From: Escherichia phage vB_EcoM_50EP
Sequence record: OR472545.1
Direction: 5' to 3' (one strand)
Length of the DNA: 50,636 bases
Position numbers and translations under genes: made by a program
The notes under the pieces: generated by a model
Databases searched by the model: none
What the model was told of the DNA's origin: nothing
Seen by the model: only the letters and a program-made list of their open reading frames with translations
Shown here: positions 1,517 through 44,302 of the stretch, in pieces
How positions within the stretch are numbered: position 1 is the stretch's first letter
Layout: every line of letters begins with the position of its first letter

Positions 1517-1548
1517 TTGACCGTTTAACAAAAAGTGCTATTATAGAG
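1517..1548 (+). promoter_or_regulatory. sigma70-like promoter (-35 TTGACC) with inverted copy of the 18-bp TAGCAC box between -35 and -10
   Basis: TTGACC at 1517-1522, box reverse complement at 1523-1540, TTATAGA after it; upstream of major capsid gene. Confidence 0.4.
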
Positions 1549-1591
1549 CCGTGAACTTAATCACGTCTTTCTAAACCAAAAGGAACAAATT

Positions 1592-2545
1592 ATGACTATG
1601 AAACTCGACTCTTTCGAACAGAACATGATCACTACTGGTATGCGCCAGCTTGGCGTTAGCGGCAACAAGGCCGACCAGCTTGGCATCTGGACCGTTAAAC
1701 AGATGACTCAGTTGCTTAAGCGTCAGTATGAAGCGGCTTACCCTGAAACTTCCGCTCTGGCTCTGTTCCCTGTCACTACTGAGATTAGCCCGACCGCTAA
1801 CCTGTTCGAATATCTCAAGTTTGACGGCGTGACCATGGCGAAGATTATCGCTGACTACACCGACGACCTGCCGACTGTTGACGCTACTCACAGTCTGGAA
1901 TCTGGTCGAGTTCACCGCCTCGGTAACGCGTGGCTGATTTCTATCGACGAGATCAAAACTGGTGCAGCGCTGGGTTCAAGTTTGTCAGATCGTAAAGCGA
2001 CTCTGGCGCGTGAAGGTCACGAAACACTTGTTAACCAGTTGGTTTTCAAAGGCTCCAAGCCTCACAAAATCATCTCTGTTTTCGACCATCCGAACATTAC
2101 CCGCGTAACCTCTGCCACTGGTGCATGGGCTGACGCAGAGAAAGCAAGCGAAGAACTGACCGACCTGATCGAGAAGATGGAAACCCTGACCAATGGTCAG
2201 CACAAGATCACCGACATCGTAATCCCGCCGTCTCAGCGTAAATTGCTCGCTAAGCGTATGCCGGAAACCACGATGAGCTATCTGGACTGGTTCAAGTCTC
2301 AGAACGGTGGCATCACCATCTCTTCCATCTCCGAACTGGAAGACATCGACGGCGCAGGCACTAAAGCTGTTCTGGCATATGAGAAAGACCCAATGAACAT
2401 GAGTATCGAGATTCCAGAATCTTTCAACATGCTCCCGATGCAGGCGAAGGATTTGCACTTTAAAGTTCCGTGCACCTCCAAGACCACTGGTCTGATCGTA
2501 TATCGCCCACTGACGATTATCATGCTGGTTGGCGTAGGTAAGTAA
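1592..2545 (+). CDS. major capsid protein
   Basis: 317-aa ORF with strong RBS and promoter, position after scaffold/decoration genes, followed by terminator. Confidence 0.6.
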   Translation: MTMKLDSFEQNMITTGMRQLGVSGNKADQLGIWTVKQMTQLLKRQYEAAYPETSALALFPVTTEISPTANLFEYLKFDGVTMAKIIADYTDDLPTVDATHSLESGRVHRLGNAWLISIDEIKTGAALGSSLSDRKATLAREGHETLVNQLVFKGSKPHKIISVFDHPNITRVTSATGAWADAEKASEELTDLIEKMETLTNGQHKITDIVIPPSQRKLLAKRMPETTMSYLDWFKSQNGGITISSISELEDIDGAGTKAVLAYEKDPMNMSIEIPESFNMLPMQAKDLHFKVPCTSKTTGLIVYRPLTIIMLVGVGK

Positions 2546-2550
2546 GGCAA

Positions 2551-2582
2551 AGCTCCTGATTAACGTCAGGGGCTTTTTTTAT
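2551..2582 (+). terminator. rho-independent terminator
   Basis: AGCTCCTGATTAACGTCAGGGGCT hairpin followed by T7. Confidence 0.6.
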
Positions 2583-2610
2583 TGACATGCAACATCAAAA
2601 CAATTACATT
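2583..2610 (+). promoter_or_regulatory. sigma70-like promoter (TTGACA-16bp-TACATT)
   Basis: consensus -35 TTGACA at 2583-2588, -10-like TACATT at 2605-2610. Confidence 0.4.
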
Positions 2611-2656
2611 GAACACCTAGGCAACACACTCGTTAAACTAATCAAAGGAAATAAAC

Positions 2657-2929
2657 ATGGCTAAGAAAAACGTCATTAAGAACATCGGCGCTTGCTTGGT
2701 TCGCATCGAAAAGCAAGACATGAAACCTGACGACACTCTGGAAGTAACAGAAGAACAAATCAAATCTCAGGCGTTAAAATACCTGTTCTTGCGCAAAGAC
2801 ATTGAGTTCGAAGATGATCCGAAGCGCACACGTGAGTACATCGCCGAAATCAAAAAGGCCGCGAAGGTTAAGCCGGAAAAAGAAGTAAAAGATATTGAAG
2901 ATCTTGAAACTGGCAAGGAATACAAATAA
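2657..2929 (+). CDS. hypothetical Lys/Glu-rich protein
   Basis: 90-aa ORF with RBS, flanked by terminators. Confidence 0.4.
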   Translation: MAKKNVIKNIGACLVRIEKQDMKPDDTLEVTEEQIKSQALKYLFLRKDIEFEDDPKRTREYIAEIKKAAKVKPEKEVKDIEDLETGKEYK

Positions 2930-2934
2930 CCTAT

Positions 2935-2962
2935 AGGGGCGCTGATGCGTCCCTTTTTTTTA
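2935..2962 (+). terminator. rho-independent terminator
   Basis: GGGGCGC-TGAT-GCGTCCC hairpin followed by T8. Confidence 0.6.
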
Positions 2963-2978
2963 ACATGAGGAAGCTACT

Positions 2979-4596: not shown

Positions 4597-4609
4597 AGGA
4601 GCATTAACT

Positions 4610-5982: not shown

Positions 5983-5983
5983 T

Positions 5984-16087: not shown

Positions 16088-16127
16088 TTTCTAATCCTTA
16101 TTAAGCGTGTTTCGTTTCGATGGAGTA

Positions 16128-16171
16128 ACTATACATGCAACTAGCGCCCGAGTCTTTAGCTATTCGTGCTA
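16128..16171 (-). promoter_or_regulatory. TAGCAC-box promoter cassette (minus strand) upstream of lipoprotein gene
   Basis: rc reads TAGCACGAATAGCTAAAG ... TATAGT ... CATCGAAACGAAAC. Confidence 0.45.
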
Positions 16172-16225
16172 TTGTATACGCGTAACCGCTGTAACTCGGT
16201 GTATGCAATCTCGTCCGCGGAAAAT

Positions 16226-16340: not shown

Positions 16341-16604
16341 CTTCTATAGAGTATTCCGCTTATAAATTTCTAATATGTATATTCATACAGTATCTAATCA
16401 CGCATACACTAATGCACCATCCGCGAAAAGTGGTATACACGATATACACGCTGTTTACATCAAGCCATGGCTGGGCTGGACAGCCATTTTATGTAACTAA
16501 CGCCATTGCATACACGTGATTACAAATATCTACATGTAACCACTTGACTAACGCAACCAAGCGCGTATAGTTACCCACATCAACAACGAACGAGGATTAA
16601 AGAG

Positions 16605-17645
16605 ATGACTAAGCCACTGTTTCAATATTTCACTTCAGAAGAAATGAGCAACGATTTCTATCACAGCAAAAGTGAATGGACTGCTGAGTATGTGTCGGGT
16701 TCATCACTTAGTAAGATTCACAGCACTTGCCCTGCGGCGTGGAAGTTTGAAATGAACTCGACTACAAAGGCTCTTGTTTTCGGCACTCAGTCACACACCA
16801 ACTTTGAGAGCAAGGCGCTGTTTGAACGTCAGTATCGCCGAGCACCGAAAGAAAGCGAGATTGAAAACGTGATAACAAGCCAGGCGGCTTTGGCAACTAA
16901 GTTAAAATCATTTGGCCTGACTGGTACAAGCGGCAAGCAATATCCAGAGTTGATTAAAATGATGGTTGATTGTGGTGAAGACCTCAACGTCATGTGGCTG
17001 ATTGATATGATCGCACAGTGTCAGGCGCGGGCCGATGGCGTGGAACTTGTTAAGGCGGAAGACTACGACGCTTGCGTCAGTATGCGCCAGGTTCTTGAGA
17101 TGATTCCTGAACATAACGCCTGCATGAACAGTGAGACAGCATTTCGTGAGTATTCATTGTTCGGCGTAATTTGTGGCGTTAAAGTCAAGGTGCGACTTGA
17201 CCACGTTGACATTATTAAAGATCCAGAAGCAATCCGTCGCATGGGTTACGATCCTGACATTCATCCTGAAATTGTCGTCATCACTGATTACAAAACGACA
17301 ATGAGCGCTAACCCGACTGAGTTCCCGCGACTGGCATTCAATCATGGATACTATCTCAAGATGGCATTGCAGCGCGACTTGTTCGTTAAATGCTTTGAGG
17401 AAACAAGACCTGTGGTTGTTCGATTGCTGGCCCAGGAGAAGAAGGAGCCTTACTTGCCGATGGCGTACCGGATGAGTAGCGATCAGCTTAAGATTGGTCG
17501 TGCGCAGTACATGAGCGTGATACACACCTTCTCAATGTGCGAAGCCAACGACGTGTGGCCTTCATACAACAACGGAGAGCCGGAAATGGAGCTTGAGACG
17601 CCTGACTGGATCATGAAGCAGTTCAAGCATATCCTGGACGCATAG
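16605..17645 (+). CDS. PD-(D/E)XK recombination exonuclease (RecB/Cas4-like fold)
   Basis: RLDHVD ... ITDYKTT motif pattern; immediately upstream of ERF and SSB. Confidence 0.5.
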   Translation: MTKPLFQYFTSEEMSNDFYHSKSEWTAEYVSGSSLSKIHSTCPAAWKFEMNSTTKALVFGTQSHTNFESKALFERQYRRAPKESEIENVITSQAALATKLKSFGLTGTSGKQYPELIKMMVDCGEDLNVMWLIDMIAQCQARADGVELVKAEDYDACVSMRQVLEMIPEHNACMNSETAFREYSLFGVICGVKVKVRLDHVDIIKDPEAIRRMGYDPDIHPEIVVITDYKTTMSANPTEFPRLAFNHGYYLKMALQRDLFVKCFEETRPVVVRLLAQEKKEPYLPMAYRMSSDQLKIGRAQYMSVIHTFSMCEANDVWPSYNNGEPEMELETPDWIMKQFKHILDA

Positions 17646-17685
17646 CACTTTTTGCTAAACACGAACACGGTGATTTGCTATAATC
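17643..17685 (+). promoter_or_regulatory. TAGCAC-box promoter cassette
   Basis: TAGCACTTTTTGCTAAAC, 7-bp stem CGGTGAT/ATCACCG with TGCTATAAT in loop. Confidence 0.45.
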
Positions 17686-17721
17686 ACCGTAAATCAAACG
17701 AAGTAAACAAAGGTATATATA

Positions 17722-21257: not shown

Positions 21258-21275
21258 TAGCACTAATTGCTAAAG
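21258..21275. promoter_or_regulatory. TAGCAC box (TAGCACTAATTGCTAAAG) in leader of minus-strand tail fibre gene
   Basis: 18-bp box 17 bp upstream of ATG at 21241; TACAAT-like hexamer further upstream. Confidence 0.4.
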
Positions 21276-21293
21276 TGCATTGTATCACAACAA

Positions 21294-22320: not shown

Positions 22321-22803
22321 TTATTCTTTAGCTTTCCGTGCTGCTTCGTTTGCTGCTTTAATTTTTCGCCATGAGCGACATTCAGGCTTAGTGGCTAGTT
22401 CAGCCTCGGTGACGACGCGCAGCATGTGACGCTTTTTGCAACGCAGCGTTAGCGGCTTGCCGTTCCCGTCGAATTGCAGATCAGGGCGGCAGAATGTAGC
22501 GCGGAACCCTTCGCCAGTTCGCTTATATCGGTTGTGCGCCAGTTGAGCGCCGCGCGCCGACATCATGCCGCGCTTAAACCATTCCTCAACTGCCTGTCGA
22601 GTAACTTTTAATTGCTTCGCCATGTTCGCCTTGCTGCCGTAGAACTCAAACACAATATCAAGTCGCGCTCTTAATCCGGCCTTTACTTCATCCTTGAGAA
22701 CATAGTAACCTGACGGTCGTTTGCGCTGCTTCTTATCTTCCGTGCGGATAGTTCCGTTGTTACCGTTAAGAGTACGCTTATCATTTGCATTCATTTTCAT
22801 CAC
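22321..22803 (-). CDS. basic HTH DNA-binding protein (candidate transcription regulator)
   Basis: segment KANMAKQLKVTRQAVEEWFKRG resembles helix-turn-helix; Lys/Arg-rich; divergent from helicase promoter. Confidence 0.4.
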   Translation of the reverse strand: MMKMNANDKRTLNGNNGTIRTEDKKQRKRPSGYYVLKDEVKAGLRARLDIVFEFYGSKANMAKQLKVTRQAVEEWFKRGMMSARGAQLAHNRYKRTGEGFRATFCRPDLQFDGNGKPLTLRCKKRHMLRVVTEAELATKPECRSWRKIKAANEAARKAKE

Positions 22804-22808
22804 CTCAA

Positions 22809-22851
22809 TAGCACTTTTTGTTAAACATTGGTTTCGATGGTTGTTATTATA
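22809..22851 (+). promoter_or_regulatory. TAGCAC-box promoter cassette upstream of helicase, 6 bp from divergent HTH gene start
   Basis: TAGCACTTTTTGTTAAAC ... TATTAT ... TCGAACGAAC. Confidence 0.45.
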
Positions 22852-22887
22852 ACGTCAATCGAACGAACATGAAAGGCATTTAATACT

Positions 22888-24990: not shown

Positions 24991-25415
24991 TTACAGATAA
25001 AGGCGACTACCTGGAATATTACACTCCAGACAAATCGGATACATGGACCGAAAGCAAACACCAGATCGATTGCGTGACCTGGACTAAAGTTAGGCATGGT
25101 GATTTGCTGTTCTGGCACGCCGTTAATGAGAACAAGAAGCACATCCACACGGCGCTAAAGGATGCTCAGAGCGGGTTATTGAAAGGGGTTAGTGATTTTG
25201 TATTCCTTTTAGGCCCGTTCGGTAAATATCCGTTCGGGGCCATAGAATTGAAGCGCGTCAATAAGAGCGGGAAAGGAAAGGCATCACCAGTCAGCAAGGA
25301 GCAGAAAGATTTCCTCCGGCGTGTCCGAGAGCGCGGCGGGTTTGCGGCGGTGGCATACGGGCAGGAGGAATACAAGAAAGCCGTTGCTGATATGCTGAAT
25401 AGCACGAATTGCTAA
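24987..25415 (+). CDS. VRR-NUC domain nuclease
   Basis: 142 aa; pattern D..FLLGPFG...AIELK ... KEQKDFL consistent with VRR-NUC. Confidence 0.45.
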   Translation: MITDKGDYLEYYTPDKSDTWTESKHQIDCVTWTKVRHGDLLFWHAVNENKKHIHTALKDAQSGLLKGVSDFVFLLGPFGKYPFGAIELKRVNKSGKGKASPVSKEQKDFLRRVRERGGFAAVAYGQEEYKKAVADMLNSTNC

Positions 25416-25442
25416 AGACGAATCGGCGGGGTGGTGTATTAT
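25400..25442 (+). promoter_or_regulatory. TAGCAC-box promoter cassette
   Basis: TAGCACGAATTGCTAAAG ... TATTAT ... CATCGAAACGAAGT; box overlaps upstream stop codon. Confidence 0.45.
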
Positions 25443-25481
25443 CACCTCATCGAAACGAAGTAACCAACCAAGGAAATCAAA

Positions 25482-26485: not shown

Positions 26486-26701
26486 ATGAGCGTAAAATCA
26501 AGTAATCAATTTCATTTATTTCGTGCGATCGTTTGCGATGAGTTAACGAGTTCAGGGTTCAAAGGTAACGCGTGGTTATTCTCAGGTGATCTTGATATGT
26601 CATTTGATGAGTTGAAAGATCAGTCAGTATCATCATGGCGCGCTGCAATACGGAAAGACCTTGAAGACTATATGCTTGCTTGCCCCGAAGATTTTGCGTA
26701 A
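26486..26701 (+). CDS. hypothetical protein
   Basis: ATG 26486 with GGAG RBS right after dam stop. Confidence 0.35.
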   Translation: MSVKSSNQFHLFRAIVCDELTSSGFKGNAWLFSGDLDMSFDELKDQSVSSWRAAIRKDLEDYMLACPEDFA

Positions 26702-26744
26702 TAGCACGAATTGCTAAACATACCCGCCGCCGCGCGGGTATACT
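26702..26744 (+). promoter_or_regulatory. TAGCAC-box promoter cassette
   Basis: TAGCACGAATTGCTAAAC ... GGTATACTTCTTTCATACC hairpin. Confidence 0.45.
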
Positions 26745-26774
26745 TCTTTCATACCAACGAGACGAGGAATCACC

Positions 26775-27571: not shown

Positions 27572-28714
27572 ATGGCTATTCAAAAAATAAGTGACGAACA
27601 ATTCATTGCTGAGCGCGAAGCTGGTAAGACACTGCGTCAAATAGCCCAAGAATACGGGATGAACATTCGAACCGTTGAGCAGCGCTCAAGCCGCCTGGCA
27701 AAGCGCGGTGAGTTCCACGGAAATAAACACGTAAGCGTACACGTACCAGAGGGTTTTCAGGTTAAAGGTACATCAACTATGATTCGCGCTGACGGTTCTG
27801 AGGTTGTGCGCTGGGTTAAGACCGATCAGGACAAGGAGAAGTTAGCCGCCATGATGAATGCTGCAATTGAAGCATTCTGTGATGAACTACCACGCGCGGC
27901 GGCTCAGCCTATCCTTGGCGAACCTCACTACGATGAAAATCTCCTGGCGCTCTATCCGGTATTCGATCTTCATATTGGCGCGATGGCACACAAGCATGAA
28001 TGCGGTGAGAACTACAGCACCGACATCTCAGAGAAAGTACTGAAAAACTTCTTTGATTATTCTGTCGGCGTATCTCCGAAGGCTAAGAAAGCAGTCCTGT
28101 TAATCGGCGGTGACTTCCTTCACTCTGATGGCCTGGACGCAGTAACGCCTGCAAGCGGTCACGTACTGGATCAGGATAGTCGATACGCCAAGCTAGTTCA
28201 CGTTGCAATCCGTTCCGTACGCCGCGCGGTGGCGCTAATGCTGGATAAGCACGAAGAAGTCGAAATCCAGATCATTGAGGGCAACCATGACCAGGCGGGT
28301 ATGATTTGGCTTCGCGCGGCAATGGCAGCATACTTTGAAGATGAGGCGCGCGTAACGGTTGATGTTTCACCTATGATTCTTCACCGTACTAAGTGGGGTA
28401 AAACATTGCTGGGATACACTCATGGTCACACCATGAAGAAAGCAGATACTCGACTGGCGGCAATGGCTACTGACTTCCGCGAAGAGTTCGGTACGAGCAA
28501 ATATATTTACACTCACTCGGGGCACTGGCATCACCAGACGATCACAGAAGGCACGCTTGGTATTGATGAGGTTCACGGTCAGTTGGGCGCGAAAGATGCC
28601 TATGCTGCGCGCGGCGGTTGGCGTTCATATCGCCAGGCGGCGGTAATTGTCTACTCCAAGGAGTTCGGCGAAGTAGGTCGCTTCGTTTACCGTCCTGAAA
28701 TGAGCGACATCTAA
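27572..28714 (+). CDS. calcineurin-like metallophosphoesterase with N-terminal HTH-like segment
   Basis: phosphoesterase motifs DLH, GGDFLHSD, GNHD, GHTH, GHWHH; N-terminal GKTLRQIAQEYGMNIRTV. Confidence 0.6.
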   Translation: MAIQKISDEQFIAEREAGKTLRQIAQEYGMNIRTVEQRSSRLAKRGEFHGNKHVSVHVPEGFQVKGTSTMIRADGSEVVRWVKTDQDKEKLAAMMNAAIEAFCDELPRAAAQPILGEPHYDENLLALYPVFDLHIGAMAHKHECGENYSTDISEKVLKNFFDYSVGVSPKAKKAVLLIGGDFLHSDGLDAVTPASGHVLDQDSRYAKLVHVAIRSVRRAVALMLDKHEEVEIQIIEGNHDQAGMIWLRAAMAAYFEDEARVTVDVSPMILHRTKWGKTLLGYTHGHTMKKADTRLAAMATDFREEFGTSKYIYTHSGHWHHQTITEGTLGIDEVHGQLGAKDAYAARGGWRSYRQAAVIVYSKEFGEVGRFVYRPEMSDI

Positions 28715-28757
28715 TAGCACGAATTGCCTAACACCATAGCGCCGGAAGGCGCTATAT
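28715..28757 (+). promoter_or_regulatory. TAGCAC-box promoter cassette
   Basis: TAGCACGAATTGCCTAAC ... GCGCCGGAAGGCGC hairpin ... TATATT. Confidence 0.4.
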
Positions 28758-28785
28758 TCATATCTCACTCACATAGGATTCAATC

Positions 28786-32265: not shown

Positions 32266-32297
32266 CTTATTCTCTCTCGTTGTTATCGATGGGTATA

Positions 32298-32341
32298 AAT
32301 ATACCCGCCGAAGCGGGTATTGTCATTAACAAAAAGTGCTA
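32298..32341 (-). promoter_or_regulatory. TAGCAC-box promoter cassette (minus)
   Basis: rc: TAGCACTTTTTGTTAATG ... CCCGCTTCGGCGGG hairpin ... TATATT. Confidence 0.4.
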
Positions 32342-32548
32342 TTTTTTGAAGTGCCCTGGCGCATAGCATTTTCCATCCTTCTTATGCAAAACCCACCCAG
32401 CAGATTTAAGTTGCCTTGCACAATCAGAAAAGTTCTCGCCAGCAGCGTCCGTATAGTGTGGCATAAAATAATGCCCATCATCATTTGACTCAGTTGAGCA
32501 CTTCTTGCAGTCGCAATAAACAGCGATGGAATAACCTGAAACAATCAT
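32339..32548 (-). CDS. small Cys-rich protein (possible zinc-binding)
   Basis: 69 aa with CDCKKC ... C ... C pattern. Confidence 0.35.
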   Translation of the reverse strand: MIVSGYSIAVYCDCKKCSTESNDDGHYFMPHYTDAAGENFSDCARQLKSAGWVLHKKDGKCYAPGHFKK

Positions 32549-32898: not shown

Positions 32899-32936
32899 GA
32901 TTATTTTCCTTTAGTGTGTTTCGTTTCGATGAGATG

Positions 32937-32979
32937 AATATACAGGAAAAGCCCCGAAGGGCTTTAGCAATTCGTGCTA
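32937..32979 (-). promoter_or_regulatory. TAGCAC-box promoter cassette (minus)
   Basis: rc: TAGCACGAATTGCTAAAG ... GCCCTTCGGGGC hairpin ... TATATT ... CATCGAAACGAAAC. Confidence 0.45.
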
Positions 32980-33489
32980 TCTTCCATGGTTTTCATGAAA
33001 ACCAAGCCTTGCATTGGCTGACATTCTCATGCATACAGCCTCAAACCAATCTTTTGACGTTCCGAGCTTTATATTTCTCCTTTTTCCACCATCCTTTATC
33101 TCAACCTGAGCCAGCCAAGTGTTTCTATCAGACCTCCACACAACGCCGCACACGCCGCTTTTGTTTAGTGGGCTTTTGCTGAAATTTCTACAATTTCCAG
33201 ATCTGGAAACAAGCCTGTGATTGCTGTCGGAATTGTCATCTCTTATGTGATTTATGTGATCAACCTCCATCCCCTCTGGTATCACGCCGTGCCTCATCTC
33301 CCAAATTATTCTATGATGAGGGTGGCATACTCCGTTAACCTCAGAATAAAGGTATCCATTCATTACATATCCTGCTAAATCGCCAGGTCTTATCTGATTA
33401 TTTCCTCTAATCCAAAAAAGCCTGTCATTCACTAGTTCAAAATGCTTTGTCCAGTCATTACTTATTGCTTTCATAAATCGCTCTCGCAA
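32977..33489 (-). mobile_element. HNH homing endonuclease with AP2-like DNA-binding domain
   Basis: HRIIWEMRHG ... VDHINHIRDDN ... N HNH pattern followed by GVCGVVW...W.A...GK AP2-like segment. Confidence 0.6.
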
Positions 33490-34987: not shown

Positions 34988-35023
34988 TTTTACTTCCTCT
35001 TTGTGTACTTCGTTTCGATGAAA

Positions 35024-35068
35024 TGATTATGCCTCATTCCGTGAGGCTTCGTTTAGCAATTCGTGCTA
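35024..35068 (-). promoter_or_regulatory. TAGCAC-box promoter cassette (minus)
   Basis: rc: TAGCACGAATTGCTAAAC ... GCCTCACGGAATGAGGC hairpin ... CATCGAAACGAAGT. Confidence 0.45.
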
Positions 35069-35070
35069 TT

Positions 35071-35458: not shown

Positions 35459-35494
35459 GATGATTTCCTTTAGTGCGTGCCGTTTCGATGAGGT

Positions 35495-35538
35495 AATAAT
35501 AGCTAATCACTCCTGATCGGTCATTAGCAAAAAGTGCT
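35495..35538 (-). promoter_or_regulatory. TAGCAC-box promoter cassette (minus)
   Basis: rc: TAGCACTTTTTGCTAATG ... TATTAT ... CATCGAAACGGCAC. Confidence 0.45.
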
Positions 35539-35552
35539 ATTCGTTCGATTTA

Positions 35553-35788: not shown

Positions 35789-35905
35789 GGTACGCATATA
35801 ACGCCTATTTACGCTATGGTTACAATAAAATATCCTTATATAACAACCCTTTATCTATATTATTATTATTATTATATATATATGTAGATAATGTAGATAA
35901 GGGAT
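35789..35905. repeat. AT-rich control-region core with GGTTACA motifs and (ATT)n tract; homologous to 16226..16340
   Basis: TTTACGCTATGGTTACAATAAAATATCC...ATTATTATTATTATTATATATATAT alignable with first locus. Confidence 0.5.
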
Positions 35906-36174
35906 ACGAGATATTGCGATAGTTTTCTATGATACATTCTGACACTTGTAAGAATGGGATGACATTGTAGGAATAAAAAGGCATATATGGGGCAATCCTC
36001 CGCGAAATTTGATGTACAAGCTGTACACAGTGGTTACATTGAGCTATATCTGGCCCGAGAGGTCGCAAAACGTAACTAAGTCGAACATTTGCATCAATAA
36101 CACTTGATAACATGTAACCACGCTGGTAATATTGCACCCATCTTAACGAAGACCACCAATCAGGAGTAACATCT

Positions 36175-36696: not shown

Positions 36697-37262
36697 TGAG
36701 CATGTTTGATTTCAGTGAAGATAAACTAACAGATGAGCAGGTGATTGAAGTTGCCATGATTGATGGTCTACTTCCGCTGCGAGTTGCGATCAGTCATAAC
36801 GGATACCGACAGTCGTTCAAATACTGGTGCAGCGCGGAAGAGATGCTTCGTGTCAAGCTCGACAGAAAGCTCGCCGTCGTCACCCATAAGATACACGACC
36901 AGGCGAAAAGAGGTAAGGGAGTTGTAGGCATTCGATCAACATACGAGGCGATCAGGAAGTTGCATCCTTTCGTCGGGCGCAATGGTGTCATGAATGACCT
37001 GAATGATAACATTCTGCCAGCGCTCCAGGGCGCCGGAATAATTTGCGTTATTGGTGACAAGATATATGCTCACCCTGCATTGGTTGGTATGGATGGTCGC
37101 GACGTCTATAAGTGGTGCAACGCCTGGCGCGCTGTGGAGCGCCGCAAATCTCAGAGCAAATTGCAGTCCAGCTCAGATCTGATTCATGGCTATGATGCAG
37201 ATGAGGTCAGAAAGGCCATCCAGTTCTACCGGAAAGCGAAATCTCTCCTGAACGGTGAATAG
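36693..37262 (+). CDS. mini-paralog of the P-loop ATPase (N- and C-terminal segments only, ATPase core absent)
   Basis: MFDFSEDKLTDEQV...LPLRVAI..NGYRQS and KRGKGVVGIRSTYEA...GDKIYAHPALVG align to the ends of the 30682..32265 product. Confidence 0.45.
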   Translation: MMSMFDFSEDKLTDEQVIEVAMIDGLLPLRVAISHNGYRQSFKYWCSAEEMLRVKLDRKLAVVTHKIHDQAKRGKGVVGIRSTYEAIRKLHPFVGRNGVMNDLNDNILPALQGAGIICVIGDKIYAHPALVGMDGRDVYKWCNAWRAVERRKSQSKLQSSSDLIHGYDADEVRKAIQFYRKAKSLLNGE

Positions 37263-37302
37263 CACGAATTGCTAAACCAGTTCCGCAAGGACGCGGTATA
37301 TT
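37260..37302 (+). promoter_or_regulatory. TAGCAC-box promoter cassette
   Basis: TAGCACGAATTGCTAAAC ... CCGCAAGGACGCGG ... TATATT ... CATTGAAACGAAAT. Confidence 0.45.
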
Positions 37303-37333
37303 GAACTCATTGAAACGAAATAGGAACATCACC

Positions 37334-37564
37334 ATGAGCTACACGATCGCCACAATGCGCACATCCACCAGGGAGCAGCGAAAGAGCCGTAAGCAGGTTA
37401 TCACCAAGCGAATCGAACGTAATGCCATGAGATACATGACGGCTGAGCAGGCCGAGAGATTCATGCGCGCCATCAAGTCCGACCTTGTGGAATTGATGGA
37501 TATTGGAAGCGCCGCCGGATACCAGTCAGGCCGTAACGATGAGCGCAATAGCACGAATTGCTAA
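37334..37564 (+). CDS. hypothetical basic protein
   Basis: ATG 37334 with RBS AGGAAC; track N-terminal extension rejected. Confidence 0.35.
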   Translation: MSYTIATMRTSTREQRKSRKQVITKRIERNAMRYMTAEQAERFMRAIKSDLVELMDIGSAAGYQSGRNDERNSTNC

Positions 37565-37591
37565 ACAATAAATCGGGTAGTCAGCTATGAT
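37549..37591 (+). promoter_or_regulatory. TAGCAC-box promoter cassette
   Basis: TAGCACGAATTGCTAAAC ... TATGAT; box overlaps upstream stop. Confidence 0.4.
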
Positions 37592-37621
37592 TGCCCTATC
37601 AACAACGAAGAGGAAATGATT

Positions 37622-38236: not shown

Positions 38237-38523
38237 AGAAACTAATTTTATTAGCAGCACTGGCTCTGGCTGGATGTGATTTCGGAAGCACCCGCGTAGA
38301 TTCAGAGGCTCGGCAGAAGATGCCAGTGAATGTCAACGATCGCGTCCAGGTTGTGAAGATTCAGGAGTTCAGGGATGAACTGGCATATGAGAACGTCAGA
38401 GCGATATACGTCATCACCGATAAGGACACTGGTCAGGAATACATCGGCTTAAGCGGTGTCGGGATCGTGGAAGTTGGTCGCCATGGTTGCGGCAAGGGAT
38501 GCTCCAGAGAAGATGAGCGATAG
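38233..38523 (+). CDS. lipoprotein
   Basis: signal peptide with lipobox LAGC. Confidence 0.5.
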   Translation: MKKLILLAALALAGCDFGSTRVDSEARQKMPVNVNDRVQVVKIQEFRDELAYENVRAIYVITDKDTGQEYIGLSGVGIVEVGRHGCGKGCSREDER

Positions 38524-38563
38524 CACTTTTTGTTAAAAATGCCGTGAGTGCATTTGCTATAGT
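38521..38563 (+). promoter_or_regulatory. TAGCAC-box promoter cassette
   Basis: TAGCACTTTTTGTTAAAA, 8-bp stem TGAGTGCA/TGCACTCA with TTTGCTATAG loop, CATTGAAGTGAAAC. Confidence 0.5.
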
Positions 38564-38602
38564 GCACTCATTGAAGTGAAACAATCAACTAAGGGGTAAT
38601 TT

Positions 38603-39360: not shown

Positions 39361-39609
39361 ATGAAAATGGTTTTCAATAAACAGACAATCTTTGATTTTA
39401 TGGACGACGTGAACAAGGCTATTCAGGAGTTTGCTGTTGCAATGGAAGCGGTAATCATTAGCTACTCAGTCGAATACGGAAGGATTGAGGTCCGGTACTA
39501 CCCTGCTAACGCCATAGCAGATGTGCATCCAGTGATGAGCATCTTGGTCGGTGATGCAAGTGAGCTTCGACGGATTACGTCTGGTGTGAGAAAGAGCACG
39601 AATTGCTAA
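39361..39609 (+). CDS. hypothetical protein
   Basis: 82-aa ORF. Confidence 0.35.
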   Translation: MKMVFNKQTIFDFMDDVNKAIQEFAVAMEAVIISYSVEYGRIEVRYYPANAIADVHPVMSILVGDASELRRITSGVRKSTNC

Positions 39610-39636
39610 AACGATATTCTCCCTGACTGGTATACT
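39594..39636 (+). promoter_or_regulatory. TAGCAC-box promoter cassette (GAGCAC variant)
   Basis: GAGCACGAATTGCTAAAA ... CTGACTGGTATACTTCTTTCATACC. Confidence 0.4.
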
Positions 39637-39664
39637 TCTTTCATACCAACAAGGGAGATACGAA

Positions 39665-39853
39665 ATGACTAACTACACCACGATTTACACTCACTGCGGC
39701 AAAGCGTTCACGGCACTGGCTGAGGATATTGAGTATCTGCCCTGGCACCAGGTATGGAAGATGCACAAGATTACTTCCACTGGAACGCAGGAGTGGTTCT
39801 TGAGAAAGATTTACGTGGCTGAGGTCATTCACCACAACGAAAAATTCGAATAG
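39665..39853 (+). CDS. hypothetical protein
   Basis: 62-aa ORF after cassette. Confidence 0.35.
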   Translation: MTNYTTIYTHCGKAFTALAEDIEYLPWHQVWKMHKITSTGTQEWFLRKIYVAEVIHHNEKFE

Positions 39854-39893
39854 CACTTTTTGTTAAACCTTCCGCAAGGCCATTTGATATAGT
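39851..39893 (+). promoter_or_regulatory. TAGCAC-box promoter cassette
   Basis: TAGCACTTTTTGTTAAAC, stem AAGGCCA/TGGCCTT with TTTGATATAG loop. Confidence 0.5.
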
Positions 39894-39933
39894 GGCCTTA
39901 TTGAAGCAAAGCAACCAATCAGAGGATTTGCAG

Positions 39934-40708: not shown

Positions 40709-40710
40709 TC

Positions 40711-40929
40711 ATGCAAGTCTACACTAACAGTAAAGGCGTCGAATTTTGTGCAATCGGTGATGTGGTTCTGCGTACTGGCGGCGGATACGGGGTTATTAAC
40801 ATCTCAGGCATCACGCAGGATCAGTTGGTAAAGGGCATCCAGGCTGGCATCTTTACCTATCACTCATCACTGACGGCTAAGCAGTACGTCACACTTGAAA
40901 CTGCAATTCGCGCCGGATTCATCGAATAG
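40711..40929 (+). CDS. hypothetical protein
   Basis: ATG 40711 with RBS GAAGGAG. Confidence 0.35.
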   Translation: MQVYTNSKGVEFCAIGDVVLRTGGGYGVINISGITQDQLVKGIQAGIFTYHSSLTAKQYVTLETAIRAGFIE

Positions 40930-40969
40930 CACTTTTTGTTAAAACTTGCTCGGAGACATTAGCTATAGT
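40927..40969 (+). promoter_or_regulatory. TAGCAC-box promoter cassette
   Basis: TAGCACTTTTTGTTAAAA, stem GGAGACA/TGTCTCC with TTAGCTATAG loop. Confidence 0.5.
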
Positions 40970-41010
40970 GTCTCCTGTCAAGTGAACGCAAACCAACTGA
41001 GGAATCACAT

Positions 41011-41814
41011 ATGAACAGCATCAACCGTTATATCCCTGTGTCAGTGCCAACCAGCGTCAACATTCACGGCGTCGGAATGCAAGCCTGCGACGATGGAGCA
41101 TGGGTATCCTACGCAATGCATAAAAAAGAAATCGAGTCCTTACAGGCACGCTTAAAGGCCTTAGAATCGACTCAAAAACATCAAATTTCTGCACCGTCGA
41201 TTATCGCTGACCATGTTGAGCAGGCAATCAAAGAAGCTGTAGGTAAGCTGGTGCACGAAGCATGTGAGCAATTGCTCAAGGATTTGCCTAAGTACAATGG
41301 CGATCCGTGTCACAGCACTGTCGATGCATTCGTGAATGAGCTTGCGGCTGGCTCAGGGAAAACCGTCGTAGATGATGGCGTAAAGTTTGATTACCTGACG
41401 AAAGATGCCAAGTTCACTTTCGGTAGCAATTTCGGTGAAGGCAAGGCGCTTACCATGTCAACCGCGAAAATGGAGCCACGCAGCGGCGGTTACGATTATG
41501 GAAATCGTCACGTATGGGCGGTAGGTGAATGCGAATCTGCACGCGATCGCAAGGTGGCAGTTTGCTATTACGTTGGCGGGAATGGATTCGTAAATGGTGG
41601 AGAATATGAGTATGAAGAAGGAGAGTGCGAAACAGGTTCCAAACCGCGCGTTATTCACATCACGCAAGACGATTTCGTATCTGGATTAAAAGGTGACTAC
41701 CGCTGGAGAGCTATGAAGGTTGGTAATGTGATAAATGCTAATGGTGAGCTAGTTGACGCATACGCAACACTAAATATTAATGGCGGAGTAGTGGCTCAGT
41801 TCTATATCAAATAG
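41011..41814 (+). CDS. hypothetical protein with C-terminal Cys/Gly-rich region
   Basis: 267-aa ORF. Confidence 0.4.
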   Translation: MNSINRYIPVSVPTSVNIHGVGMQACDDGAWVSYAMHKKEIESLQARLKALESTQKHQISAPSIIADHVEQAIKEAVGKLVHEACEQLLKDLPKYNGDPCHSTVDAFVNELAAGSGKTVVDDGVKFDYLTKDAKFTFGSNFGEGKALTMSTAKMEPRSGGYDYGNRHVWAVGECESARDRKVAVCYYVGGNGFVNGGEYEYEEGECETGSKPRVIHITQDDFVSGLKGDYRWRAMKVGNVINANGELVDAYATLNINGGVVAQFYIK

Positions 41815-41854
41815 CACTTTTTGTTAAAAGGGGATTCATCCTGACTGGTATAAT
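41812..41854 (+). promoter_or_regulatory. TAGCAC-box promoter cassette
   Basis: TAGCACTTTTTGTTAAAA, stem GGGGATT/AATCCCC, CTGACTGGTATAAT. Confidence 0.5.
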
Positions 41855-41887
41855 CCCCACATCAACCACACGAAAGGAAGTTAACCA

Positions 41888-42340
41888 ATGAAAAGGATTG
41901 ATGAACTTGTAATTATTACATCATTAGAGACTGATGATTGCATAGATTGGACTTACGCAAAAACAAGAGATGGATACGGCCAGGTTAGATATCGTGGGGC
42001 AACCAGAAGGGCGCACAAGGTATCATACTGCATGTCAAATGGAATTGACTATGAGGATGTAAAAGGTGTTGTAATGCACTCATGCGATAATCCTTGTTGT
42101 GTAAACCCAAGACACCTAACAGTTGGCACTCAGCATGAAAATATTATTGATTGCGTCTCAAAGGGTAGATTTAGAAGTGTGGAGGGCATTAAGAATCCAA
42201 GGTCGATAGTGTCAAACTCTGACGCAGAGAAAATGCGCTCAATGAGGGAGATTGGAATGACTTATGGTGATATAGCGAAAAGCATGGGCGTTGGAAAATC
42301 AACGGCGTATAGAGTAATAACAACTGGATACTTATCATGA
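41888..42340 (+). mobile_element. HNH homing endonuclease with C-terminal HTH-like segment
   Basis: DGYGQV...HK..Y......V.HSCDNPCCVNPRHL..GT..EN pattern; markedly AT-rich relative to flanks. Confidence 0.55.
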
Positions 42341-42876
42341 ATCAGCTTTACACAATGATTAAACACCATATAGAAACATCATACAATAACAAGCCTGTTT
42401 ACTGTTTTGACTACGACGGCACGCTGTCGGACGGATCGCATCGCTTGCACAGGTTGCCGACAAAGGATTTGCACCTTACCGAGTCATGGTCTGAGTTCAA
42501 TAGATTGTCAATACATGATGAACCTATCGAATCAACCATTCAGGTGATGAATAGCCTGTTTGACTCAGGCGCGTTCATCATCATTCTAACAGGGCGTTCA
42601 GATGAGGTATGTGAGATTTCAACTCAATGGCTTCATGATGCTGGCGCAAAATATAACGTCATGGTAATGCGGCAGGCGAGAGACAATCGCAAAGACACTC
42701 TCATCAAAGAGGAGTTCTTGCGTTACATTGGCTTGCACCGCATCACCGCAGCGTGGGATGATAGCCCTAATGTTATCGCGCACTTCCGAAGCCTGCGAAT
42801 CACCACCTATCAAGTGTGTGACTATGGCGATAAGCTCCATGCCGGAGTAGGATCACACGGCGTGCATAATAAGTGA
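42337..42876 (+). CDS. HAD-superfamily phosphatase
   Basis: DxDGT motif (FDYDGTL) near N-terminus, ILTGRS motif II-like. Confidence 0.5.
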   Translation: MNQLYTMIKHHIETSYNNKPVYCFDYDGTLSDGSHRLHRLPTKDLHLTESWSEFNRLSIHDEPIESTIQVMNSLFDSGAFIIILTGRSDEVCEISTQWLHDAGAKYNVMVMRQARDNRKDTLIKEEFLRYIGLHRITAAWDDSPNVIAHFRSLRITTYQVCDYGDKLHAGVGSHGVHNK

Positions 42877-42996
42877 CGATATACGAACATATATTCAGCA
42901 GCAGGGGTATTGATATGCTCCTGCATTATGTAGACAAAAAATACGCAAACCTCATGCTTAAGACGCATGGTGGAAAAATAAAGAGGATTAAAGTAA

Positions 42997-43629
42997 ATGG
43001 CTAAAATTATCATTCTCAACGGTCCAGCTTCGGTTGGTAAAGACACGATCGGCAACGCGCTCGCAGCGGATTACAACTGCATCCCTACCAGCTTCAAGCG
43101 TCCGATGTTTGAGATTGCAGCATCAATCCTTGGTGCCAGGGCTTTCTCAAAGTTCATCACCGCATACGACGACCGCGATCAGAAAGAGCAGCCTCAGAGC
43201 TTTCTCGGTGGCAAGACCTGCCGTGAGTTCATGATCTGGATTAGCGAAACAGTGGTCAAGCCGCTTTTTGGCAATCAGCAGTTCGGCAAATTGATGAGCG
43301 AGCATATCCAACTGTGTGATCAAGGTTTCTGTTTTGTGTGTACTGATGGCGGCTTCCCTGATGAAGTGATCCAACTCCTTGAAGATGGTCACGATGTCAC
43401 CCTGGTTCGCCTGTTCATGGATGGCAAGACTTTCGATGGCGATAGCCGTGATTACATTCGTCTTAAGGAATTGTACTACCCTTATTACAAGAAATATAGC
43501 GAGCATGATGTGCATCTGGTGAATGGTGATATTTATGGCGGCGTCCTGGCGGTTGCTGAGGCTTGCGGTATTAGCTCACAAGTTCCAGAGGTTGATGTTT
43601 ACGAGTGGGAAGATGGATTACCATGGTAA
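42997..43629 (+). CDS. P-loop kinase (nucleotide or polynucleotide kinase-like)
   Basis: Walker A GPASVGKDT at residues 9-17; about 210 aa; adjacent to HAD phosphatase. Confidence 0.45.
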   Translation: MAKIIILNGPASVGKDTIGNALAADYNCIPTSFKRPMFEIAASILGARAFSKFITAYDDRDQKEQPQSFLGGKTCREFMIWISETVVKPLFGNQQFGKLMSEHIQLCDQGFCFVCTDGGFPDEVIQLLEDGHDVTLVRLFMDGKTFDGDSRDYIRLKELYYPYYKKYSEHDVHLVNGDIYGGVLAVAEACGISSQVPEVDVYEWEDGLPW

Positions 43630-43630
43630 A

Positions 43631-43673
43631 TAGCACGAATTGCTAAACCAGCTCCGGCGGGTTTTGTTATAGT
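43631..43673 (+). promoter_or_regulatory. TAGCAC-box promoter cassette
   Basis: TAGCACGAATTGCTAAAC ... TTGTTATAGT. Confidence 0.4.
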
Positions 43674-43702
43674 TAGCTCACACCAAACGAGAGGAAGGCA
43701 AG

Positions 43703-43861
43703 ATGATTACTATCAACCTGTCAGATAAGCAAGCCGCCACACTGAAACAGTTACTGGCCAGTCAGACTATGCAGTGCTCAGCCGATGAGTTCTCTGAGAT
43801 GGTCAAAGAGGTTCGCACTCAGATCAACAATCAGCAATTCGACGAAAACGAAGGGGAATAA
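43703..43861 (+). CDS. small hypothetical protein (52 aa, below track threshold)
   Basis: manually read ORF with RBS GAGGAAGG. Confidence 0.3.
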   Translation: MITINLSDKQAATLKQLLASQTMQCSADEFSEMVKEVRTQINNQQFDENEGE

Positions 43862-43863
43862 CC

Positions 43864-44262
43864 ATGAAATTACGTTGCGTTAAAATACATCCAGGGTTAG
43901 CGCCGCTGCTCGAAGATCACTTTCAGGTTGGTCATGTGTACGAAGCTAAACGCAGGCCAAACCGCCACCTCAACGTGGCTGATGTTATTGATGTGGATAA
44001 CGGCCTTACTTGGTACGCCATCCAGAAAGGCAGTAAGTTTAACCTGAATCTCGCAAGCGGCAAAGCAGTCACTTTCGCGGTAGTAAAAGGTCCGCGCCGC
44101 TTAGTAGTGACGGAAAAACGTGTAACTGGCGTCCTTAATGATAAGCGTAAGTTCCGCCGTATGTGTCGCCAGTATGGAAAGCTGCGATTCACCGAGCCTG
44201 GGATGTTCTGCTTCATCGCCTTTGCGGCAATGAAAAAGAATGCACGTAATCACCAGCGATAG
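43864..44262 (+). CDS. hypothetical basic protein
   Basis: 132-aa ORF. Confidence 0.4.
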   Translation: MKLRCVKIHPGLAPLLEDHFQVGHVYEAKRRPNRHLNVADVIDVDNGLTWYAIQKGSKFNLNLASGKAVTFAVVKGPRRLVVTEKRVTGVLNDKRKFRRMCRQYGKLRFTEPGMFCFIAFAAMKKNARNHQR

Positions 44263-44302
44263 CACTTTTTGTTAAAACTCAGAATCGGGGTGGCTGTATA
44301 GT
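44260..44302 (+). promoter_or_regulatory. TAGCAC-box promoter cassette
   Basis: TAGCACTTTTTGTTAAAA ... GGGGT...TGTATAGTTACCCC ... CATCGAAACGAACG. Confidence 0.5.

Follow-up and report, generated by a model that had tools for sequence, protein, structure and literature searches.

Marboxes are asymmetric sites of about 20 bp whose readers are the monomeric two-HTH activators MarA, SoxS and Rob (and RamA in Klebsiella and Salmonella). The consensus reported for MarA/SoxS/Rob is gcannwwntgnnaaa (PMC12052159), and CAC(T/G)-N7-AAA has been given for MarA and micF (PMC8811837). In class II promoters the marbox lies in forward orientation and overlaps the -35 region (PMC12052159, PMC6900184), and a recognisable -35 element is absent (PMC10268841). 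In phages, PeSL cassettes, composed of an early promoter and a stem-loop, are known from T4-like phages (PMC4122927), and a 21-nt direct repeat (aaATAGCACnnnTTGnTAAAA) was described in 2024 for phage TLS and also in T1, Rtp and Rogue1. The function of this repeat was left open (a stoperator, an enhancer or an UP element were suggested), and only three sigma70-like promoters were found in TLS by the same authors (PMC11447400).

The DNA analysed here (the window) was a stretch of 50,636 nucleotides from Escherichia phage vB_EcoM_50EP (OR472545.1). Exact matches to TAGCACNNNTTGYTAAA occurred 16 times (0.00 in shuffles), and five more copies were recovered when up to two mismatches were allowed (16155-16171(-), 28715(+), 32325-32341(-), 35523-35539(-) and 39594(+)). 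A sequence-only reading of this DNA had proposed about 21 copies, far above chance, and the count of 16 exact and five near copies against none expected agrees with this; its minus-strand positions were one to two bases off, and the box, which it had taken to be 18 bp long, is 17 nt as written. It was right that the conservation is not coding, as stop codons of upstream genes are overlapped in all three phases: of 17 upstream stop codons, 12 lay inside the box (eight as TAG at position 1, four as TAA at position 14) and others immediately 5' of it. Its supposition that the element was undescribed did not hold, since the box is the published TLS repeat and agrees with it in its subgroups (GAA, TTT and AAA), in being oriented with transcription and in lying upstream of start codons (PMC11447400). 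Four features are added here, none of them part of the TLS description (PMC11447400): the fixed distance to a -10 hexamer, the match to the marbox, the hairpins and the presence of the box within late promoters.

Matches without mismatch to the 15-mer core gcannwwntgnnaaa were enriched over shuffles in related genomes as well as in the window (18 versus 0.25 in the window, 20 versus 0.3 in T1, 19 versus 0.7 in TLS, 14 versus 1.0 in Rtp, and 12 versus 1.1 in Opt-79). The box is unchanged between subfamilies whose proteins are just 45-60% identical, and an identical box is present in a record named 'Vibrio phage Vc1'.

A sigma70 -10 hexamer was located at a fixed 18 (17-19) bp downstream of the box in 19 of the 21 window copies, with G at -14 in most of these 19 units and a -35 element in none; the predicted +1 falls 21-35 nt upstream of the next start codon. 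When units from the window, T1 and TLS were pooled (59 in total), 45 had exactly 18 bp between the end of the marbox and the -10 hexamer, and none fell outside 17-19 bp. A search for -35 elements in the phage box units gave best matches averaging 2.6 of 6 positions, compared with 2.45 at random positions, and canonical promoters were not enriched (30 found, 26.8 expected). Two promoters without a box have the -10 and leader of the box units together with a genuine -35, spaced at 16-17 bp: 16544..16571 (+; TTGACT-16-TATAGT, same leader style), upstream of the recE-like gene at 16605, and 36104..36132 (+; TTGATA-17-TGgTAATAT), upstream of the first plus-strand early gene at 36175 (DUF7174). The box is a DNA-level signal and not a coding constraint; it is linked to the predicted transcript starts and is very probably bound by a protein.

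Five of the box units are on the minus strand. The unit at 16121..16172 (marbox-like 20-mer 16153-16172, -10 TATAGT 16128-16133, predicted +1 near 16121) precedes a lipoprotein gene (15857-16087; Pfam Phage_lipoprotein), and that at 32291..32342 (marbox 32323-32342, spacer hairpin, -10 TATATT 32298-32303) a DUF3987 helicase-like gene (30682-32265). The other three are 32930..32980 (marbox 32961-32980, -10 TATATT 32937-32942; gene 32545-32898), 35019..35069 (marbox 35050-35069, spacer hairpin, -10 CATAAT 35026-35031; gene 34763-34987) and 35489..35540 (marbox 35521-35540, -10 TATTAT 35496-35501; gene 35276-35458). On the plus strand, the unit at 17642..17691 (marbox 17642-17661, TGcTATAAT with its hexamer at 17679-17684, predicted +1 near 17691) leads into the ERF recombinase gene at 17722, and the TAG of its box is the stop codon of gene 16605-17645. 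The unit at 22808..22857 (marbox 22808-22827, -10 TATTAT 22845-22850) serves the helicase gene at 22888 and is divergent from a Cro-like gene. It is followed by 25399..25449 (marbox 25399-25418, -10 TATTAT 25437-25442 with hairpin arms on either side; gene 25482), 26701..26751 (marbox 26701-26720, GC spacer hairpin ATACCCGC...GCGGGTAT, -10 TATACT 26739-26744; gene 26775) and 28714..28765 (degenerate marbox 28714-28733, spacer hairpin, -10 TATATT 28753-28758; gene 28786).

The remaining plus-strand units lie at 37259..37309 (marbox 37259-37278, -10 TATATT 37297-37302; gene 37334), 37548..37598 (marbox 37548-37567, -10 TATGAT 37586-37591; gene 37622), 38520..38570 (marbox 38520-38539, TGcTATAGT with hexamer 38558-38563 and hairpin arms on either side of the -10; gene 38603) and 39593..39643 (marbox 39593-39612, TGgTATACT with hexamer 39631-39636; gene 39665). 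The unit at 39850..39900 (marbox 39850-39869, TGaTATAGT with hexamer 39888-39893; gene 39928) has a hairpin, aaggcca/tggcctt, around its -10, and the same hairpin is found in T1 and TLS. Flanking hairpins also accompany 40926..40976 (marbox 40926-40945, -10 TATAGT 40964-40969; gene 41011), 41811..41861 (marbox 41811-41830, TGgTATAAT with hexamer 41849-41854; HNH endonuclease gene 41888) and 44259..44309 (marbox 44259-44278, -10 TATAGT 44297-44302; gene 44333), and the set is completed by 43630..43680 (marbox 43630-43649, TGtTATAGT with hexamer 43668-43673; gene 43703).

RNA polymerase itself might read the box, as a displaced -35-like TTGCTA or TTGTTA combined with an UP-like enhancer for the alpha-CTD. 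TTGYTA resembles TTGACA at four of six positions, the box lies within -50 to -33, where the alpha-CTD binds, and UP-like enhancers were proposed by the TLS authors (PMC11447400). Of the 59 units, however, 45 have 22 bp between TTGYTA and the -10, and the range over all units is 21-23 bp; the invariant GCAC block lacks the A/T-richness of an UP element, and a real -35 stands at 16-17 bp in the two box-less promoters. In sigma70 promoters, 21-23 bp between -35 and -10 is outside the working spacer range, and we regard this explanation as improbable.

The phage box matches the marbox consensus gcannwwntgnnaaa without mismatch and also agrees with CAC(T/G)-N7-AAA. A weight matrix was built from 70 Salmonella ChIP-seq sites of MarA/SoxS/Rob/RamA (PMC10268841 Table 1), and its consensus, GCACAAATTGCTAAA, is itself one of the phage box variants. 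On this matrix the phage boxes scored 16-18 bits (median 16.0, with 18.1 the maximum possible), compared with a median of 10.2 and a 90th percentile of 16.2 bits for genuine chromosomal sites; 17 window positions reached at least 16 bits versus 0.0 in shuffles. For two phage boxes, chromosomal ChIP-seq sites of identical sequence exist. Where the phage box varies (positions 8, 9, 10 and 14; only A/T at 9-10, mostly C/T at 14), the marbox is degenerate too, and the K-12 mar marbox (ATGCCACGTTTTGCTAAATC) is identical to the phage sequence ATAGCACTTTTTGCTAAAAC at 16 of 20 positions. As measured here, E. coli micF reads ACAGCACTGAATGTCAAAAC-18-TAGAAT and its annotated RNA start lies 8 nt beyond, so that both the orientation of the phage box and its 18-bp distance to the -10 are those of micF. 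With class II mar/sox/rob promoters (micF, lpxC P2, lpxL P1 and rfaY P1) the phage units share a forward marbox over the -35 position, no recognisable -35, a sigma70-type -10 and the core sequence; a hairpin separating the site from +1, and a transcribed leader that is conserved, set them apart. About 20 sites, all near the optimum, occur in 50 kb of a virulent phage, whereas the marboxes of chromosomes are dispersed and for the most part score low (median 10 bits). On balance we favour the reading, drawn from sequence comparison, that host MarA/SoxS/Rob drive the box units as class II marbox promoters. That another host protein such as Lrp reads the box appears exceedingly improbable. The Lrp consensus, YAGHAWATTWTDCTR, resembles TAGCA-N5-TGCTA, and its outer half-sites agree at 11-12 of 15 positions when aligned by hand; box position 6 (an invariant C) and the likewise invariant AAA tail have no counterpart in it, and its central bases mismatch, whereas the marbox fits without mismatch.

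Searches for a phage-encoded MarA/SoxS-like protein, by tblastn and phmmer with MarA and SoxS, gave no match, and no HTH_18 or AraC domain was found by Pfam among the ORFs of 15.8-46.7 kb. A different candidate is the product of 22321..22794 (-), a Cro-type protein of the T1 gp23 'transcriptional regulator' family, which had been put forward as a candidate box-binding protein together with the observation that the GAA variant is an inverted repeat. The repeat, TAGCA-N5-TGCTA, is present, but a symmetric dimer site is not supported, given the asymmetric conservation, the strict orientation and the coincidence of the variable box positions with the degenerate ones of the marbox, an asymmetric site with monomeric readers. 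As a dimer, the protein would bind TAGCA-N5-TG(C/T)TA near -42, activate the box promoters via sigma region 4 and repress the late promoters with the box in their core, the likeness to the marbox being coincidence or mimicry. Its gene, which adjoins a box promoter divergently, is conserved across the family, with 103 homologues that come mostly from contigs of about 50 kb; the single-HTH product gave a high-confidence model (pLDDT 88) with Cro proteins (Xfaso 1, N15) as best structural matches. The 10-bp separation of half-sites fits a dimer, and the two box-less canonical promoters could begin a cascade. The GAA-variant dyad, with its centre near -42, would be well placed for a dimeric HTH activator too, as with lambda cI at PRM. 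Against this, C7, T11 and A16-A18 are (nearly) invariant across copies and have no complementary partners, leaving three position pairs non-complementary, and the dyad partner of the invariant G4 is C or T, with T in place of C in the right half-site of half of the copies. All promoter-associated copies point the same way with respect to the gene downstream. The recognition helix reads TRQAVEEW in the window, SNQTVQGW in T1, NLKTVWGW in TLS and CCVRLTNAY in Vc1, while the box is identical in all four, which speaks against the protein as box reader, and a chance fit both to an 18-bit consensus and to the -10 distance of micF would be improbable. We therefore consider this explanation unlikely. 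T4 middle promoters provide a further comparison: a MotA box (TGCTT) at about -30 replaces the -35, the -10 is often extended, and phage MotA and AsiA are required. The box units likewise have a factor-binding box instead of a -35 and an often extended -10; the window box differs in lying at -50 to -31, and no such phage factor was found by Pfam among the ORFs of 15.8-46.7 kb.

Two predicted late promoters hold the box in repressor-type positions. The major-capsid-gene promoter, 1517..1544 (+), comprises TTGACC (1517-1522), a 16-bp spacer and TGcTATTAT (hexamer 1539-1544), with a reverse box within the spacer (20-mer 1522-1541(-)) covering about -29 to -10, an arrangement conserved in T1 and TLS. 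The tail-fibre gene promoter, 21258..21287 (-), has TGaTACAAT (TG 21287-21286, hexamer 21284-21279; ATG at 21232) and a box, the only fully palindromic copy, at 21258-21274, that is, predicted +1 to +17; its T1 equivalent has TGaTAAAAT plus the box. At pbpG, a marbox in the spacer leads to direct repression by MarA, SoxS and Rob (PMC12052159), and the capsid promoter likewise carries a spacer marbox, the effect in the phage being a prediction. Activation is another possible outcome, as with a marbox at -16 to -30 of a sigma28 promoter (PMC12781870).

In most units a sense-strand hairpin lies between the box and +1. Being upstream of +1, it can form only in RNA that reads through from upstream; it is a separate layer and probably ends or stabilises the upstream transcript; each unit would then be a compact cassette of stop codon, activator site, hairpin and promoter. 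PeSLs are similar in being short repeated cassettes of promoter and hairpin at gene boundaries in variable early regions of virulent phages, and in being possible sites of modular exchange; they differ in that the PeSL promoter has a normal -35, 17-bp spacer and -10, while the box unit has an activator site without -35 and a hairpin within the promoter. The repeats might serve mainly as recombination points or insulators (PeSL-like terminator-promoter cassettes for module swapping) or as roadblock 'stoperators', with binding specificity secondary. The cassettes do sit at gene boundaries of the variable early region and contain hairpins, HNH endonuclease genes directly adjoin them in the window phage, T1 and Rtp, and with PeSLs such cassettes have a precedent in the literature (PMC4122927). 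This view would leave unexplained both the fixed 18 bp between an optimal marbox and the -10 and the constancy of the box between subfamilies with 45-60% protein identity, and in this virulent phage no repressor or lysogeny module was seen; as a main function this is very improbable, although a recombination or insulator role is compatible with a promoter role.

Under the marbox reading, a host MarA-family protein would bind at about -50 to -31, contact sigma70 region 4 and the alpha-CTD, and so recruit or stabilise host RNA polymerase at promoters with just a good, often extended, -10. The box promoters would drive most early and middle genes (small early, replication, recombination, methylase and lysis-region genes), and the same host protein, on the reverse spacer box of the capsid promoter and the +1 box of the tail-fibre promoter, would keep both of these late promoters in check. 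Several points count against this reading. T1-like phages grow fast in ordinary broth, which counts against reliance on MarA/SoxS/Rob; without stress, cells contain little MarA or SoxS and most of their Rob is aggregated (PMC10268841), and activation by the MarA family is usually modest, two- to fourfold (PMC8811837). Basal activity from a near-consensus extended -10 may already be high, and the box would then do no more than modulate it. None of rob, marA and soxS appears in the main text of a 2026 preprint on genome-wide host screens against 255 coliphages (64 T1-like); the subject of that text is receptors, and redundancy among the three activators would hide the effect of losing any one of them. 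The presence of the same box in the 'Vibrio phage Vc1' record may also count against the marbox reading. For the T1-like phages, the marbox reading would give a testable answer to the open function of the TLS repeat.

The repeat family recognised in the sequence-only reading is real: TAGCACNNNTTGYTAAA occurs in 16 exact copies in the window, against an expectation of 0.00 from shuffles, and five further copies with one or two mismatches lie where that reading had placed them. As written there, the box is 17 nt long rather than the 18 bp claimed, and its minus-strand coordinates had been displaced by a base or two. Its conservation is non-coding, as had been argued: in 12 of 17 cases the upstream gene ends on a stop codon inside the box, either TAG (position 1) or TAA (position 14), other stops lie immediately 5' of it, and all three stop phases are represented. 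The element was thought to be undescribed, but it has already been published and is not new: a 2024 reannotation of phage TLS reported a 21-nt direct repeat, aaATAGCACnnnTTGnTAAAA, in 21 copies that are aligned with the direction of transcription about 76 nt 5' of start codons, fall into AAA, TTT and GAA subgroups, and are found also in T1, Rtp and Rogue1 (PMC11447400). Its authors detected only three sigma70-like promoters in TLS, suggested that the repeats are stoperators, enhancer sites or UP elements, and posed their function as an open question (PMC11447400). Our literature search found no other paper carrying the repeat sequence in such a context, and no transcript mapping, 5'-end or reporter data for T1-like phages. 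The window itself represents a T1-like phage (Drexlerviridae), with an early region 85-90% identical to those of TH27, CJ19 and P817 and a terminase 99.8% identical to that of P817.

Units consisting of a forward box, a -10 hexamer and a predicted +1 ahead of a gene were pooled from the window (19 units), T1 and TLS, giving 59 in total. The spacing from TTGYTA to the -10 hexamer was 22 bp in 45 of the 59 and 21-23 bp in all of them. When the units were aligned on the -10, T-12 was present in 53, G-14 in 46, C-1 in 36 and A+1 in 46 of the 59; A-11 and T-7 were present in all 59, which is not independent evidence because both were required during unit picking. The predicted start lay 21-35 nt 5' of the next start codon in the 19 units of the window. 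Where a -35 would normally lie, the best TTGACA match averaged 2.6 of 6 positions versus 2.45 at random positions, and the interpretation of TTGYTA as the -35 of an ordinary sigma70 promoter was rejected because of the resulting spacer of 21-23 bp. The fixed distance between box and -10, together with the missing -35, marks the units as predicted promoters that lack a -35 but combine a good -10, often of the extended type, with a conserved box spanning about -50 to -31. A generic scan of the window gave 30 canonical promoters against 26.8 expected, that is, no enrichment, and generic promoter and terminator scanning missed the units; the promoter features annotated in phage ETEP102 likewise proved to be generic predictions. 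An internal contrast is provided by two box-less promoters, TTGACT-16-TATAGT at 16544-16571(+) and TTGATA-17-TGgTAATAT at 36104-36132(+), which have a true -35 at 16 and 17 bp, respectively, and a -10 and leader style like those of the units.

In its older form, the consensus of the marbox, the asymmetric site of about 20 bp bound by the host activators MarA, SoxS and Rob (and RamA in Klebsiella and Salmonella), which are monomers with two HTH motifs, reads AYnGCACnnWnnRYYAAAYn. It has also been given as gcannwwntgnnaaa (PMC12052159). Perfect consensus matches numbered 18 in the window, 20 in T1, 19 in TLS, 14 in Rtp and 12 in Klebsiella phage Opt-79, where shuffles expect 0.25, 0.3, 0.7, 1.0 and 1.1, respectively. 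The box also agrees with CAC(T/G)-N7-AAA, the pattern given for MarA and micF (PMC8811837). In a weight matrix built from 70 sites mapped in Salmonella by ChIP-seq for MarA, SoxS, Rob or RamA (PMC10268841 Table 1), the consensus, GCACAAATTGCTAAA, is itself one variant of the phage box. Phage boxes scored a median of 16.0 of a maximum of 18.1 bits, compared with a median of 10.2 bits and a 90th percentile of 16.2 for genuine chromosomal sites; 17 positions in the window scored at least 16 bits (0.0 in shuffles), and two boxes were identical in sequence to chromosomal sites. Positions 8, 9, 10 and 14, at which the phage boxes vary, are those at which the marbox is degenerate, with only A/T at positions 9-10 and mostly C/T at position 14, and 16 of 20 positions are identical between the marbox of E. 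coli K-12 mar, ATGCCACGTTTTGCTAAATC, and the phage sequence ATAGCACTTTTTGCTAAAAC. The Lrp consensus, compared by hand, fitted less well than the marbox.

Class II promoters of the mar/sox/rob regulon carry a forward marbox overlapping the -35 (PMC12052159, PMC6900184) and have no recognisable -35 (PMC10268841). In the 19 units of the window the 20-mer is in forward orientation and spans about -50 to -31, with a sigma70-type -10 and no -35 downstream. The class II archetype micF of K-12 was measured as ACAGCACTGAATGTCAAAAC, 18 bp, TAGAAT and the annotated RNA start, and it resembles the phage units in its forward orientation and in the 18 bp from marbox end to -10, the distance found in 45 of the 59 units, micF being the sole reference promoter measured. 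All sequence-level features of marbox and class II promoter were therefore present, and the best-supported explanation of the repeat, judged moderately probable on these motif and spacing data, is that it forms class II marbox promoters across the genome on which host MarA, SoxS and Rob act. Other element classes agree less well with the units. An UP element is an A/T-rich alpha-CTD site at -60 to -40 ahead of a -35, whereas the box contains an invariant GCAC block and is followed by no -35. The stoperator of mycobacteriophage L5 is a repressor-bound roadblock in a temperate phage, without fixed relation to promoters, whereas the box lies at a fixed 18 bp from the -10; no repressor or integrase was present among the scanned genes of the window. 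The PeSL cassettes of T4-like phages are likewise repeated promoters with a stem-loop at gene boundaries, but their promoter has a normal arrangement of sigma70 -35, N17 and -10 (PMC4122927), and the phage units have no -35.

No MarA-like phage protein was found by tblastn or phmmer with MarA and SoxS as queries, and Pfam detected no AraC-type HTH in the ORFs located between 15.8 and 46.7 kb of the window ('Serglycin' matches were artefacts of the GS linkers used). The sole clear DNA-binding candidate was the product of 22321-22794(-), which belongs to the T1 gp23 'transcriptional regulator' family (103 homologues). The structural model of this product (pLDDT 88) has Cro proteins of Xfaso 1 and N15 as matches, and the protein is therefore assigned a single HTH; a two-HTH protein was discarded, the fold comprising one Cro-type HTH and a C-terminal part. 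The main rival explanation is that a dimer of this Cro-like protein binds the quasi-dyad TAGCA-N5-TGCTA centred near -42. The sequence-only reading had likewise proposed a dimeric binding site, and was right in kind as to a protein-binding site, but the palindrome is unsupported: conservation is asymmetric and oriented, with invariant positions that are not dyad-symmetric, 4-5 of 8 conserved symmetric pairs complementary, and one orientation in 19 of 19 units. Furthermore, the recognition helix of the Cro-like protein varies among the window phage, T1, TLS and 'Vibrio phage Vc1' (the most distant homologue, 47% identity), whereas the box is constant in all of them. Constancy of the box across phages whose proteins have drifted to about 50% identity points to a slowly evolving host protein as its partner. 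MarA, SoxS and Rob homologues occur in many enterics (PMC10268841), and the hosts of the box-bearing phages are Escherichia, Shigella, Klebsiella, Salmonella and relatives. Neither of two intended non-enterobacterial controls was usable: Pseudomonas phage Haboob proved to be a lambdoid temperate phage, and the host label of phage Motto offers no clean test because the identity of this phage to Salmonella and Vibrio isolates is 82-88%. The gene for the Cro-like protein and the helicase gene are divergent and about 90 bp apart (22795-22887). Read on the opposite strand, the helicase -10, TATTAT (in ttattataa), is TATAAT; the two promoters may therefore face and overlap each other, in which case the box would belong to the 5' leader of the gene for the Cro-like protein.

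Two box copies occupy late promoters. One, at 1524-1540(-), sits within the spacer (16 bp) of a strong predicted plus-strand promoter (TTGACC at 1517-1522; TGcTATTAT with hexamer at 1539-1544) just 5' of the major capsid gene, a layout kept in T1 and TLS; a marbox in the pbpG spacer leads to direct repression by MarA, SoxS and Rob (PMC12052159). The other, a palindromic copy at 21258-21274, begins at the predicted +1 of the tail-fibre extended -10 promoter TGaTACAAT, a layout shared with T1. Because boxes also occupy these promoters, one factor could activate early and middle genes while holding down two late promoters. Apart from the reverse capsid-promoter copy, no box was found at 46-50.6 kb or in the structural-gene stretch at 1.6-15.8 kb. 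Strong plus-strand terminator-like hairpins are located at 46078-46097, just 5' of the small terminase gene, and at 48281-48301, just 3' of the large terminase gene. T1 (L003) has an extra reverse box at 18847(-), between the genes for the major tail protein and the tape-measure chaperone, with no counterpart in the window, and several IMG/VR viral contigs of 39-42 kb (for example, IMGVR_UViG_2974571228_000001; loci L062-L064) contain multiple exact boxes.

In most units the region from box to +1 can fold into a hairpin, with a mean z of -3.1 over the 59 units (76% below -1.5) versus -0.09 (11% below -1.5) for random 39-mers of the window. Two forms were distinguished: a GC-rich hairpin in the spacer that terminates in the TAT of the -10, four of which are annotated in the T1 record as rho-independent terminators, and a flanking hairpin with arms around the -10 (pairs -16/-9 out to -26/+2) and the loop TGnTAT. 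For the flanking register in 40 units, 55.7% of cells were paired versus 47.4% in shuffles (0 of 500 reached the observed value), double changes numbered 68 versus 38, and slid registers paired 37-44%. In 39 of 46 units (p = 5e-7) folding favoured the sense over the antisense strand, and G-U pairs numbered 60 in the former versus 26 in the latter, so a cruciform was disfavoured and the hairpin would act in RNA read through from upstream. Because the left arm lies 5' of the start of the promoter's own transcript, it is the message from upstream that the hairpin would most likely terminate or stabilise. Rfam and tRNA scans gave no matches.

Most units also carry a conserved transcribed leader, (C)ATCGAAACGAA, from the predicted +1 and 5' of the ribosome-binding site (for example, at 25449-25462, 35019-35006 on the minus strand, and 44309-44322), and a similar leader, CAACGAAACGAAC, is found in the distant 'Vibrio phage Vc1' (L129, repeat family D2); the leader might influence promoter escape, translation or RNA stability. 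Both divergent gene junctions of the window are occupied by paralogous AT-rich non-coding modules of about 430 bp and 37% GC (16172-16604 and 35751-36174). The two align collinearly (85% identity over 81 nt, E = 1e-19, with further blocks at equal offsets), and each has (TAT/ATT)n tracts as well as numerous GTTAC/GTAAC motifs, with three tandem AGTTACGC-like units at 16237-16263. The right end of each module is one of the box-less canonical promoters, and the modules might serve as origins, as immediate-early control regions or as sites of the Cro-like protein. HNH endonuclease genes directly adjoin box units in the window (41888-42340 and 32977-33363), T1 (ST15) and Rtp (rtp20), in the last case even within the late region; this adjacency in several phages suggests that the box-promoter cassette travels with mobile genes.

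The main doubts about the marbox reading are that MarA, SoxS and Rob activity is low in unstressed cells, that activation by these factors is usually modest (PMC8811837), and that rob, marA and soxS go unmentioned in the main text of a preprint on a large host screen. The literature search found no paper that ties T1-like phages to marboxes or to MarA, SoxS or Rob. The class II marbox reading would explain both the function of the repeat and the near-absence of ordinary promoters from the TLS genome, and it predicts the positions of transcript starts. A bolder extension, which we regard as speculative and rather unlikely, is that almost all early and middle transcription would be wired, through optimal marboxes, to the activators with which the host responds to antibiotics, bile and oxidative stress (Rob, MarA, SoxS and RamA), with the same host protein repressing the capsid and tail-fibre promoters. 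Replication of the phage DNA, with about 20 high-affinity sites per copy, would then titrate the limited activator, turning early promoters down and late promoters on while simultaneously draining the host's mar/sox/rob defence regulon. If true, phage development would be tied to the stress state of the host (bile salts in the gut, salicylate, mar-type multidrug-resistant mutants); TolC, the receptor of TLS, is itself a member of the mar/sox/rob regulon. Should the class II marbox reading itself hold, its units would offer some 20 compact promoters, graded and responsive to an activator, in ready-made form. The regulators of intrinsic multidrug resistance would then be required by a large and common group of enteric phages, among them contaminants of laboratories and fermentations and candidates for therapy against Klebsiella and E. 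coli, with a bearing on phage-antibiotic combinations and on the behaviour of these phages in the gut.
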